Below, in pieces: positions 2,982 through 5,768 of a stretch of DNA of 13,999 nucleotides (positions are counted from its first letter, which is position 1; the number at the start of each line of letters is the position of its first letter). The translations under genes and the position numbers were made by a program. The notes under the pieces were generated by a model. The model was given only the letters and a program-made list of their open reading frames with translations. It made no database searches and was not told where the DNA came from. This DNA comes from a virus (taxonomy: Duplodnaviria; Heunggongvirae; Uroviricota; Caudoviricetes), in the IMG/VR virus record IMGVR_UViG_2563366967_000002, positions 1 to 13,999 of that record. One strand, given 5' to 3'.

Positions 2982-5051
2982 GTGGATATGGCAGCAGTAA
3001 AAATCTCAGGTGTGCTGAAAGATGGTGCGGGAAAACCAATACAGAACTGCACTATTCAACTGAAGGCAAAGCGTAACAGCACCACGGTTGTGGTGAACAC
3101 GGTGGCCTCAGAAAATCCGGATGAAGCCGGACGTTACAGCATGGATGTCGAGTATGGCCAGTACAGCGTTATCCTGCTGGTTGAAGGTTTTCCGCCTTCA
3201 CATGCCGGGGCCATCACCGTGTATGAGGATTCTAAGCCGGGGACATTGAATGATTTTCTGGGCGCTGCAACAGAAGATGATGTTCGTCCGGAGGCACTGT
3301 ATCGTTTTGAAAAGATGGTGGAAGAGGTGGCACGCAACGCTGAAGCCGCCTCTCAGAGCGCAGCGGCAGCAAAGAAATCAGAAACAGCAGCGGCATCGTC
3401 CAGGAATGCGGCGAAAACATCAGAGACGAATGCAGGTAACAGCGCGAAAGCGGCAGCTTCTTCAAAAACAGCCGCACAAAACGCAGCAACAGCGGCAGAA
3501 CGTTCAGAGACAAATGCCCGTGCGTCAGAAGAAGCCTCCGCAGACAGTGAAGAGGCTTCCCGCCGTAATGCAGAGTCAGCCGCTGAAAATGCCGGAGTCG
3601 CCACCACAAAAGCGCGGGAGGCCGCAGCAGACGCAACAAAGGCCGGGCAGAAAAAGGATGAGGCTCTGTCGGCAGCGACACGGGCTGAAAAGGCGGCAGA
3701 CCGCGCAGAAGTCGCAGCGGAAGTGACTGCAGAGCCCTATGCGAATATAGTGCCGCCGCTGCCTGATGTGTGGATACCGTTTAACGATTCACTGGATATG
3801 ATTGCGGGTTTTTCTCCGGGCTATAAAAAAATAGCTATTGGTGACGATGTGGTTCAGGTCGCCAGTGATAAACAGGTTAATTTCAGTCGCGCATCAACGG
3901 CAACATATATCAACAAATCTGGCGAACTGAAAACGGCGGAAATTAATGAGCCGCGATTTGAGTGTGATGGCCTGCTTATTGAGGGACAAAGAACGAACTA
4001 CATGCTCAATTCGGAAAGTCCAGCCAGCTGGGGGAAGTCATCAAACATGGATGTGCCCGAAACCGGGACAGATAGTTTTGGTTTTACTTATGGAAAGTTT
4101 GTCTGCAACGATTCTCTGGTTGGGCAAACTTCGGCTATTAATATGGCATCAATTGCTGCAACAAAGTCAGTTGATGTCTCAGGCGATAACAAGTACGTGA
4201 CAACCTCATGCCGTTTTAAAACAGAACGACAGGTAAGGTTACGTATACGGTTTGATAAGTATGATGGTAGTGCAACAACTTTTCTTGGCGATGCGTACAT
4301 TGATACGCAAACGCTTGAAATTAATATGACAGGTGGTGCTGCCGGCAGAATTACGGCACGAGTCAGGAAGGATAAGACCACAGGCTGGATTTTTGCAGAG
4401 GCAACGATTCAGGCAATTGATGGTGAGTTAAAAATAGGCTCTCAGATACAGTATTCTCCTGAGCAGGGTGGGGCAACAGTATCTGGTGACTATATTTATC
4501 TTGCCACCCCACAAGTAGAGAATGGGCCGTGTGTATCATCATTTATTATTTCAGGAGGCAGCGCAACGACAAGAGCCAGTGATTTGGTTAGTATCCCCAC
4601 CAGAAATAATCTTTATAAGTTACCATTTACTTTTTTACTTGAGATTCATAAAAACTGGGATATTGCACCAAACGCCGCACCCCGCGTGTGGGATATAGCA
4701 GCAGCCAATACCGGGCAATCAGCAATTGCAGCAATCAACAGAGGTAGTGGTAAGTTATATATGAGTCTGTCAAACCCTTCAGGCTCGTATGTTAATAGCG
4801 CAGCGACAGATGTATTTGCAGAGAAAACCACATTTGGATGTATTGCAAAAGCTGATGGTCACTTTCATGTGGTGACAAATGGTAAAGCGGTTAATGAAGT
4901 TTATTGTGAATATAATGGCGTGACCGCTGATAAAAATATCCGATTTGGAGGGCAGACGAATACTGGAGAACGACATCTGTTTGGCCATATTCGCAATTTC
5001 CGCATATGGCATAAAGAATTAAATGACAGGCAATTAAAAGAGGTCGTATGA
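2982..5051 (+). CDS. stf: Side tail fibre protein: lambda Stf-like N-terminus fused to a divergent C-terminal domain with LamG/ConA-like signature
   Basis: 689 aa. N-terminus (MAAVKISGVLKDGAGKPIQNCTIQLKAKRNSTTVVVNTVASENPDEAGRYSMDVEYGQYSV...) matches the recalled lambda Stf start, followed by an Ala/Ser/Thr-rich low-complexity shaft. From about nt 3730 the sequence becomes AT-richer and ends ...LFGHIRNFRIWHKELNDRQLKEVV, resembling the C-terminal motif of LamG/ConA-like jelly-roll lectin domains. Confidence 0.85.
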   Translation: MDMAAVKISGVLKDGAGKPIQNCTIQLKAKRNSTTVVVNTVASENPDEAGRYSMDVEYGQYSVILLVEGFPPSHAGAITVYEDSKPGTLNDFLGAATEDDVRPEALYRFEKMVEEVARNAEAASQSAAAAKKSETAAASSRNAAKTSETNAGNSAKAAASSKTAAQNAATAAERSETNARASEEASADSEEASRRNAESAAENAGVATTKAREAAADATKAGQKKDEALSAATRAEKAADRAEVAAEVTAEPYANIVPPLPDVWIPFNDSLDMIAGFSPGYKKIAIGDDVVQVASDKQVNFSRASTATYINKSGELKTAEINEPRFECDGLLIEGQRTNYMLNSESPASWGKSSNMDVPETGTDSFGFTYGKFVCNDSLVGQTSAINMASIAATKSVDVSGDNKYVTTSCRFKTERQVRLRIRFDKYDGSATTFLGDAYIDTQTLEINMTGGAAGRITARVRKDKTTGWIFAEATIQAIDGELKIGSQIQYSPEQGGATVSGDYIYLATPQVENGPCVSSFIISGGSATTRASDLVSIPTRNNLYKLPFTFLLEIHKNWDIAPNAAPRVWDIAAANTGQSAIAAINRGSGKLYMSLSNPSGSYVNSAATDVFAEKTTFGCIAKADGHFHVVTNGKAVNEVYCEYNGVTADKNIRFGGQTNTGERHLFGHIRNFRIWHKELNDRQLKEVV

Positions 5052-5326
5052 AAGATTTAACTTTGAAGTTTCATGACAAACTGCAGTTTAAGGCCTTCCT
5101 GTCATCTCTTGACTGGGAGGAGGATGAAGACCTCCAGAATAAACTGTTAGTCGATGAAATTGGTTTCACCTACACAGAAACAGGGGTAACAGAAGAGGGA
5201 GAACCTGTCTGTGTCCGGAATGACGGTTATTTTGTCAACATTCGCATTCTTGATGACTTGTTTGATGTTTCTGTATTCTCTGATTATGTCGTGGAGCTGG
5301 AAACACCGCTTCGGGAATGGAGCTGA
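5048..5326 (+). CDS. Hypothetical small acidic protein, start overlaps stf stop (ATGA); possible tail-fibre chaperone or accessory factor
   Basis: 92 aa, strongly acidic (many D/E), no TM segment. ATG at 5048 overlaps the stf TGA at 5049-5051, implying translational coupling. No recognised family. Confidence 0.5.
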   Translation: MKDLTLKFHDKLQFKAFLSSLDWEEDEDLQNKLLVDEIGFTYTETGVTEEGEPVCVRNDGYFVNIRILDDLFDVSVFSDYVVELETPLREWS

Positions 5327-5338
5327 AAGGAGGAAATA

Positions 5339-5632
5339 ATGGATATAAGCCCCTTACTTCATGCGCTTTGTGCTGTGGCTGCGCAGCTACTGATTGGTCT
5401 TTTTACCGGGAACTGGGCTTACGGGGCGATAGCCGGTTGTACGTTCTTCATTGCGCGTGAACACACCCAGGCAGAATATCGCTGGATTGAAATGTTCGGG
5501 CATGGCAAGCGAATGAATATGCCGTGGTGGGGCGGTTTTGATCCGCGCGCTTGGGATGTGGCAAGCCTGATGGATTTTGCTGTGCCGGTGGTGGCGTGTC
5601 TGTTGGTCTGGCTGTTGGTTAATCGTGGGTGA
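5339..5632 (+). CDS. Hypothetical small membrane protein (2-3 predicted TM helices)
   Basis: 97 aa with a strong SD (aaggagg) 6 nt upstream. Hydrophobic segments LLHALCAVAAQLLIGLFTG and LMDFAVPVVACLLVWLLV flank a Trp/Gly-rich loop (MPWWGGFDPRAWD). No recognised family. Confidence 0.5.
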   Translation: MDISPLLHALCAVAAQLLIGLFTGNWAYGAIAGCTFFIAREHTQAEYRWIEMFGHGKRMNMPWWGGFDPRAWDVASLMDFAVPVVACLLVWLLVNRG

Positions 5633-5642
5633 AAAAAGGTGA

Positions 5643-5768
5643 GCTGTATATGCAACGGAGGAAGAAACCTCGTTGCTGGAAGCCTGGAAGAAGTATCGGG
5701 TGTTGCTGAACCGTGTTGATACATCAACTGCACCTGATATTGAGTGGCCTGAAATACCTGAAGTTTAA
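5643..5768 (+). pseudogene. Tail fibre assembly protein Tfa, 3'-terminal remnant (last ~37 codons only)
   Basis: In-frame translation after a TGA at 5640-5642 gives ...[37 protein letters not shown], matching the recalled lambda Tfa C-terminus. No start codon or N-terminal part in frame. Confidence 0.75.

Follow-up and report, generated by a model that had tools for sequence, protein, structure and literature searches.

The window analysed here is a stretch of 13,999 nt (IMG/VR virus record IMGVR_UViG_2563366967_000002, positions 1 to 13,999) and includes the rightmost part of the tail region of a lambdoid prophage, carried in the chromosome of an Escherichia coli (E. coli) strain. Along it lie, in order, J, lom, stf, orf92, orf97, cargo genes, DLP12-type remnants and ompT. 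The segment made up of the side tail fibre gene stf, the two small open reading frames (ORFs) orf92 and orf97, and a 3' stub of the fibre assembly gene tfa is probably the receptor-binding cassette of the prophage, the same as genes 22 to 24 of coliphage 21, and a role can be proposed for each of its four parts. The kind of cassette is a familiar one, a fibre with a cognate partner and an adjoining small membrane gene. Its sequence is also known and common; it is the two small protein families that are uncharacterised, and orf92 is unrelated to the known fibre chaperones.

On the plus strand, stf runs from 2982 to 5051, with 689 codons when counted from the GTG at 2982 and a probable start at the ATG at 2988, behind a GGAG. 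The gene ends in GTC GTA TGA and the ATG of orf92, at 5048, lies within this sequence, giving an ATGA stop/start overlap. The orf92 gene itself (5048..5326, plus strand; phage 21 gp23, phrog_1361) encodes an acidic alpha/beta protein of 92 amino acids (aa) and stops with TGA at 5324-5326. Read from the sequence, the Shine-Dalgarno AAGGAGG of orf97 (5327..5333, plus strand) abuts this stop codon and is separated by 5 nt from the ATG of orf97, which begins 12 nt after orf92 (5339..5632, plus strand; phage 21 gp24, phrog_1443) and encodes a membrane protein of 97 aa. The last 37 or so codons of tfa follow on the same strand (5652..5768), with a match to the Caudo_TAP family and a TAA stop at 5766-5768. 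A sequence-only reading of this DNA had placed four elements at 5048-5768, namely a non-lambda end of stf, an ATGA-coupled orf92, a membrane protein gene and a tfa stub, and all four are present.

The agreement with phage 21 extends through all three genes. The amino-acid identity is 99.6% between Stf and gp22, 100% between orf92 and gp23, and 98% between orf97 and gp24. At the DNA level, window positions 4000-5708 are 99.2% identical to phage 21 over 1709 nt, and equally so to ev017, ev207, Perceval, PhiR57_1 and others. The PHROG profiles fall in the phage 21 gene order, with Stf assigned to phrog_1419 (E = 0), orf92 to phrog_1361 (E 8e-42, positions 1-91 of 92) and orf97 to phrog_1443 (E 3e-58, positions 1-96 of 97). 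Phage 21 and the window also agree in gene order, ATGA overlap, ribosome-binding site and the initial 57 nt of the stub of tfa.

The earlier statement that neither small ORF matches a recognised family has to be amended. No family was found for either in Pfam, NCBIfam or PADLOC, but both sit in existing PHROG families and are phage 21 genes 23 and 24. The end-to-end profile matches, the breadth of the two families and the confident AlphaFold2 models mark them as genuine genes, as opposed to ORFs that arose by chance. It is the function that is missing from the records: phrog_1361 and phrog_1443 are PHROG families without an assigned function, and in the phage 21 record (GenBank OL657228) gp23 is labelled 'hypothetical protein' and gp24 'putative membrane protein'. 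The phage 21 annotators applied HHpred and still gave these genes no function (Feiss et al. 2022, PMC9119081). No functional work was found in the literature on the phage 21 side fibre, on LamG side fibres or on the ECOR prophage set.

Three plaque-forming phages, 21, Lambda_2E9 and PhiR40_1, carry stf-orf92-orf97 without tfa, which indicates that the arrangement is functional and not the product of decay. The module is also present in the Rac prophage of BL21(DE3), where stf is truncated and the module lies ahead of pinR. Among 5426 complete E. coli genomes, orf92 was found in 1131 (1202 places) and orf97 in 2068 (5225 places, with up to 8 in one genome), so that orf97 has approximately four times the copy number of orf92.

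The N-terminal part of the fibre is that of lambda. Residues 5-134 of Stf are the anchor of lambda-type prophage tail fibres (Pfam phage_tail_N, E 3e-68), homologous to the N-terminus of lambda Stf, and an alanine-rich shaft comes next. Beyond it, residues 300-546 (3879..4619, plus strand) are homologous to Rcc01080, also called GhsB, the head spike fibre of the Rhodobacter capsulatus gene transfer agent (RcGTA). This region scores 55.7 bits against NCBIfam NF048003 (GTA head spike fibre), where the cut-off is 36, and matches the Rcc01080 sequence from PDB 6TB9 with phmmer at E 6e-10. Rcc01080 is beta-rich and lectin-like, and has been described as binding capsular polysaccharide (PMC10218006). 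Its place is on the capsid, where 10 N-terminal residues anchor it to a spike base, whereas the corresponding domain of Stf is joined to a lambda-type side-fibre shaft and extended by a LamG domain.

This LamG/ConA-like lectin domain covers Stf residues 563-684 (4668..5033, plus strand) and ends in a conserved GHIRNFRIWHKELNDRQLKEV motif, the C-terminal columns that include GHIRNFRIWHKELNDRQLKEV being conserved in the alignment of LamG tips. Against Laminin_G_3 (PF13385) the isolated last 150 aa of Stf score 27.7 bits, where the cut-off is 27.6, and the whole protein scores 24.5 bits. Of 22 homologous tips, 15 match Laminin_G_3, the best with an E of 6e-12. As judged by these profile matches, the LamG assignment is marginal for the Stf of the window alone and solid for the tip family. 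The claim of a LamG-type tip made by the sequence-only reading holds, since the isolated tip is over the Pfam gathering score and 15 of the 22 homologous tips match; its description of the tip needs the correction that the stretch linking the lambda-like N-terminus to the LamG domain is homologous to Rcc01080.

Stf has thus kept the lambda-type anchor and shaft, and its distal half is composed of an Rcc01080-like beta-rich domain and a LamG lectin domain. Residues 331-620 are hypervariable, with identities to the window ranging from 19 to 100% among 46 distinct E. coli cassettes, as is expected of the specificity-determining part of a receptor-binding protein. Stf most likely binds a surface polysaccharide; the class of receptor is read from the domain homology, which was computed. 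In strain 04-00955 (NZ_CP035498; locus L002, 7989-10052) the equivalent of window 2982-5051 was annotated by the Prokaryotic Genome Annotation Pipeline as an N-terminal pseudogene and a 'phage head spike fiber domain-containing protein'. With the 689-codon stf ORF uninterrupted in both sequences, this division appears to be an artefact of the annotation.

The protein encoded by orf92 is acidic, with an isoelectric point of 4.1 and 22 aspartate and glutamate residues to 8 lysines and arginines, and its AlphaFold2 model is a small alpha/beta fold with a predicted local distance difference test score (pLDDT) of 94. A profile search covering 1.84 billion representative proteins gave 80 relatives at 50% identity clustering, reaching down to approximately 30% identity and mostly of 85-110 aa. 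A sub-alignment of these relatives was used to retrieve 80 viral contigs from IMG/VR as distant orf92 loci. An upstream gene could be identified in 75, and in all 75 the C-terminal 430 or so residues of its product are homologous to Stf 256-689 and the start of the orf92-like gene overlaps the fibre stop by 1 or 4 nt. Because this first set of loci had been picked via orf92, the test was repeated from the side of the tip, with the LamG-tip alignment as query. In this direction an orf92-like ORF lies directly downstream in 69 of the 71 loci with enough downstream sequence. One of the two exceptions keeps a gap of the size of orf92, and the other has an interrupted tip with orf92 2.7 kb downstream. 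Carriers of the pair of tip and orf92 include lambdoid siphophages, phages that have a Mu gpP/gp44-type baseplate hub gene next to it, on the downstream side, and prophages of Comamonas and Pantoea. This constant linkage, together with the translational coupling, makes orf92 an obligate genetic partner of the Rcc01080-like and LamG tip.

Fibre genes with a cognate assembly protein encoded downstream are known, as in lambda stf-tfa, T4 gp37-gp38 and the fibre-Tfa pairs of Mu and P2. The lambda pair is similar to the present cassette in that a fibre gene is followed by a small tip-specific gene, and the cassette retains the 3' end of tfa. It is most likely that orf92 is the cognate assembly or tip partner of this fibre, holding the role that Tfa has for lambda-type tips. 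Taking the genetic place of Tfa, it would be made in step with Stf through the ATGA overlap. Most likely it either acts as a chaperone, in folding or assembly, or remains attached as an accessory to the conserved C-terminus of the LamG domain. The position is what the two have in common, as hhalign gives the orf92 family a probability of 0.05% against lambda Tfa, with no similarity. A Foldseek comparison of the orf92 model with BFVD matched only uncharacterised phage proteins, and a profile search of the PDB gave chance matches only.

Two points weigh against reading orf92 as an assembly partner of the tip. Among E. coli variants the identity of orf92 tracks the last 69 aa of Stf best (rho 0.68, other segments 0.16-0.37), but this correlation is confounded by physical linkage. 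In addition, many loci have a second short fibre gene right after orf92, which fits an adaptor as well as a chaperone. Instead of assisting assembly, orf92 could then belong to the fibre structure itself, forming a distal cap or an adaptor at the end of the LamG domain and possibly serving as the docking piece for the second short fibre. A gene of this kind with a Peptidase_S74 domain directly follows orf92 in the E. coli 'type B' cassettes and in most distant viral loci, and the two E. coli types of orf92 split exactly by the presence or absence of the second fibre. However, orf92 is kept without a second fibre in phage 21, in the window and in the loci with a Mu-type baseplate hub gene next, and a structural role is considered the less likely reading, though an adaptor is a serious alternative.

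The second short fibre gene encodes 234-346 aa, including the Peptidase_S74 intramolecular chaperone domain, and is situated between orf92 and orf97 in many relatives. Examples are at 4918-5958 in locus L011, 5286-5990 in L012, 2919-3959 in L242 and 5315-6313 in L182. In the 'type B' cassettes it goes with a distinct type of orf92 that is approximately 53% identical. A fused form of orf92 is also found. In locus L030 (5432-5998), and in the equivalent ORF of L037 (Comamonas), an orf92-like domain (phrog_18574) makes up the N-terminal half of a 188-aa protein. The C-terminal half of the L030 protein matches other PHROGs without an assigned function, and the ORF lies between a Stf-tip homologue of approximately 400 aa and orf97.

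The third gene, orf97, is independent of orf92 and belongs to a large, unannotated proteobacterial family, as its distribution and coupling show. By its AlphaFold2 model (pLDDT 91) it is an inner-membrane protein of three hydrophobic helices (residues 4-23, 26-53 and 74-96). It has an invariant core, R40-E41-x-T-Q-A-E-Y-R-W-I50 followed by M61-P-W-W-G65 (RE.TQAEYRWI...NMPWWG). Among 70 distinct sequences, positions H8, G29, R40, E41, T43-I50, G56, R58, M61-W63, G65, W72, D79 and P83 are each at least 95% conserved. The polar character and invariance of the core point to a conserved envelope target or ligand. There are more than 2100 clusters in the family at 90% identity, all of approximately 100 aa, of which none is named and none has a Pfam domain. 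They come from Escherichia, Salmonella, Leclercia, Citrobacter, Pantoea, Aeromonas, Comamonas, Acidovorax, Halomonas, Desulfovibrio and many sphingomonads. Fold searches with orf97 returned generic helical bundles only, and a PDB profile search returned nothing.

In phages, orf97 is found 0-65 nt after tail fibre or tailspike genes, or overlapping them, as in the Leclercia P2/HP1-like, Salmonella, JEP4 and Desulfovibrio loci. It begins 0 nt after a 939-aa fibre in the P2/HP1-like Leclercia prophage, lies between two tailspike genes in the Salmonella locus, and is at tailspike genes in Leclercia and Desulfovibrio. In the P22-like phage JEP4 it overlaps the tailspike stop and int comes next. A Comamonas siphophage has it after a giant J and a small ORF. 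In the Halomonas phage phiHAP-1 it overlaps the tail fibre assembly gene and precedes the sheath gene, which is the position of Z/fun in P2. Distant homologues are present in virulent Aeromonas jumbo phages, with a partial match in the 156-kb Salmonella phage KFSST3. That temperate and virulent phages alike repeatedly couple it to receptor-binding genes suggests that it acts at the cell envelope during the lytic cycle.

Across E. coli cassettes whose tips are 19-100% identical, orf97 is 96-98% identical. It is near-constant whatever fibre precedes it and so does not co-evolve with receptor specificity, which suggests that it probably acts on a conserved component of the envelope. A promoter scan with a simple consensus identified no sigma-70-like site ahead of orf97 in the window. 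Since the tight spacing also leaves no room for one, orf97 is presumably expressed with the late genes; in some other phages its start overlaps the upstream stop. Hairpins that resemble intrinsic terminators are present just upstream of stf, at 2275-2294 (after J) and 2950-2971 (after lom). Transcription of stf-orf92-orf97 would thus need read-through of these, presumably by Q-antiterminated late transcription.

Small genes in or beside tail or receptor-binding genes that block other phages at the envelope include HK97 gp15, T5 llp, phi80 and N15 cor, and P2 Z/fun. In size, membrane location and genomic position orf97 is like these. It is unlike the HK97 gp15 moron in that the simple consensus scan found no promoter or terminator of its own, and hhalign gives no homology between the two (probability 0.15%). 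It is unlike Llp and Cor in having no lipoprotein signal: no lipobox is present, since homologues have A, I or V in place of C11 and the H-A-L at positions -3 to -1 does not suit one. A further difference from this group is that members of its family are found as ordinary genes of the chromosome too. The Tai tail-assembly-interference systems were also weighed and rejected, since they have J as their target and are located on the upstream side of the packaging module.

The sequence-only reading had put forward the membrane protein as a candidate for blocking DNA entry, and a function of this kind is the best guess here too, although a tentative one. As a superinfection-exclusion or lytic-conversion protein of the inner membrane, orf97 would block secondary infection or DNA entry during and after late gene expression, or inactivate a conserved entry component. 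Consistent with this, it is a small inner-membrane protein, it is carried by temperate and virulent phages alike, and there may be as many as 8 copies per E. coli genome. It also lies at sites of protective genes, in the Z/fun position in phiHAP-1 and between the tailspike gene and int in JEP4; P2 and P22 keep protective genes at those positions. However, orf97 is homologous neither to HK97 gp15 nor to any PADLOC model, and with no promoter of its own found in the consensus scan, expression from a repressed prophage is doubtful.

Other observations weigh against this reading as well. Chromosomal copies of orf97 outside prophages, stable and without phage neighbours, are syntenic in five Aeromonas species (loci L004, L014, L018, L021, L022) and five Leclercia species (L019, L023-L026), and in alphaproteobacteria (L073, L075, L042, L051) the gene adjoins the housekeeping gene ligA, a 3-deoxy-D-arabino-heptulosonate 7-phosphate (DAHP) synthase gene or a NadB-like gene. 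Such copies show a cell-autonomous function that need not involve phages. The promoter scan, on which the case for late expression partly rests, was a crude consensus test. A place behind receptor-binding genes may be no more than a sign that insertions are tolerated where the late operon ends. In two of the alphaproteobacteria (L073, L075) the homologue is just downstream of ligA. The chromosomal neighbourhoods gave no coherent hint of function.

About as likely as the block of infection or entry, and similarly doubtful, is that phages captured orf97 from a host, as a membrane protein whose physiological role is unrelated to infection, and that it stands where it does because of the insertion-tolerant end of the late operon and of fibre swaps. 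The syntenic Aeromonas and Leclercia copies and the alphaproteobacterial contexts favour this, as does a family of more than 2100 clusters that are all close to 100 aa, and the near-invariant E. coli orf97 beside the tfa stub fits a recombination arm. Against capture, at least four tail architectures that are unrelated to each other share this placement, as do virulent phages, and the stop and start codons often overlap; random insertion would give a less regular pattern. A role for orf97 in assembly or in lysis timing is less likely than either exclusion or a captured host protein. Taken together, the two small genes would be a new family of partners (chaperone or cap) for lectin-type tips, in orf92, and an unnamed family recruited repeatedly by at least four tail architectures, in orf97, which could be a late envelope-directed block of entry or an exclusion factor; this combined proposal is put forward with considerable reserve.

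The two genes do not behave as a unit. A homologue of orf97 was found in just one of the 80 distant orf92 loci, and an orf92-like gene in eight of 70 species-level orf97 genome loci. At least 11 enterobacterial loci have the tip and orf92 without orf97 downstream, the flank having been checked for approximately 1.5-3 kb in most. The suggestion that the stf tip and both ORFs might always travel together therefore fails on these counts, and on the roughly fourfold excess of orf97 copies. The same figures count against a two-gene toxin/immunity or abortive-infection module, an idea also raised in the first description and founded on the layout of the window only, in which an acidic soluble protein is followed by a small membrane protein. 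With the families not co-distributed, orf92 coupled to the fibre gene and not to orf97, and PADLOC giving no match for either ORF at E <= 1, such a module is very improbable.

The stub that closes the cassette is what remains of tfa. Directly behind an in-frame TGA at 5640-5642, its frame opens at 5643 and contains no ATG, GTG or TTG. It matches positions 95-131 of the 131 in the Caudo_TAP profile (PF02413; E 5.5e-18) and is not a complete, translatable tfa; from approximately 5651 it differs very little from the final 110 or so nt of lambda tfa. In RefSeq the equivalent stub of a near-identical strain is recorded as a pseudogene missing its N-terminus. That orf92 and orf97 are themselves N-terminal pieces of a split or frameshifted tfa, as their location in the lambda tfa position with the tfa 3' end after them might imply, is scarcely credible, since neither gives a signal for Caudo_TAP or Phage_tail_APC (PF16778), the hhalign probability of the orf92 family against lambda Tfa is the 0.05% given above, both are full-length members of their own families, and orf97 is a membrane protein that also occurs in non-phage contexts.

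The junction between the orf97 stop and the stub, TGAAAAAAGGTGAGCTGTATAT followed by GCAACGGAGGAAGAAACC..., is common to the window, phage 21, the BL21 Rac prophage and Lambda_2E9, bar single-base differences. A junction shared by four genomes suggests that one ancestral event replaced the tip and the 5' part of tfa. This bears out the view that a horizontally swapped tip brought its own small partner and that tfa survived as a 3' scar. To the right of the junction these genomes differ. In phage 21 and Lambda_2E9 sit genes begin after the equivalent of window 5708, the sitDCBA cargo of phage 21 cutting the stub at this point. In BL21 the stub reaches the tfa stop and pinR follows, whereas in the window it extends to the stop codon of tfa, after which come a hairpin and then the catalase gene and ferritin-like stress cargo. 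PhiR40_1 has an orf97 that is 88% identical and lacks the stub. It is plausible that the stub and the near-invariant orf97 would now serve as the right-hand homology arm for swaps of fibre tips among E. coli prophages.

Three separate tfa 3' fragments are present in the window, at 5652-5768, at approximately 9418-9630 (in the ORF 9324-9629) and inside the ORF 13548-13904. All three end ...SLLEAW.KY(R/W)VLLNRVDTS.... Recombination or insertion thus seems to have taken place repeatedly at the conserved 3' end of tfa.

The hairpin beyond the stub is an inverted repeat, AAGCCCGC and GCGGGCTT (5774..5799, unstranded), read from the sequence as an 8-bp stem with a 10-nt loop. It separates the fibre cassette from the convergent catalase gene and has a T-rich run on its minus-strand side. 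It is a probable terminator that would close both the fibre cassette and the catalase unit. The terminator scan missed it because the loop of 10 nt exceeds the 8-nt limit of the scan. Rfam and tRNA scans of the window found nothing.

To the right of the cassette, the cargo on the minus strand consists of a manganese catalase gene (5888-6778), genes for two ferritin-like YciE/YciF-type proteins (6797-7303 and 7340-7846) and one for a YciG-like general stress protein (7919-8101). These stress genes, 5888-8101, occupy the position in which phage 21 has sitDCBA. DLP12-type remnants make up window 8599-13649, including a ybcY-like S-adenosylmethionine methyltransferase gene (8599-9267), an alpha/beta hydrolase gene (9813-11297), ompT (11484-12437) and a frameshifted integrase fragment (12912-13649).

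The cassette is carried by phage 21, by BL21(DE3) and by some 20-40% of complete E. coli genomes, and its small genes are still 'hypothetical'. The shared stub and the invariant orf97 give a concrete picture of the homology arms for the exchange of fibre tips. Within the cassette, orf97 is among the commonest unannotated small membrane genes of E. coli prophages, and a phenotype for it would explain a conserved part of tail-fibre modules. If orf92 is the cognate partner of the tip, the transplanting of lectin-type tips must move orf92 along with them, and not tfa. A partner role for orf92, if true, affects both the host-range engineering of lambda-based particles and the reading of host range from prophage sequence.

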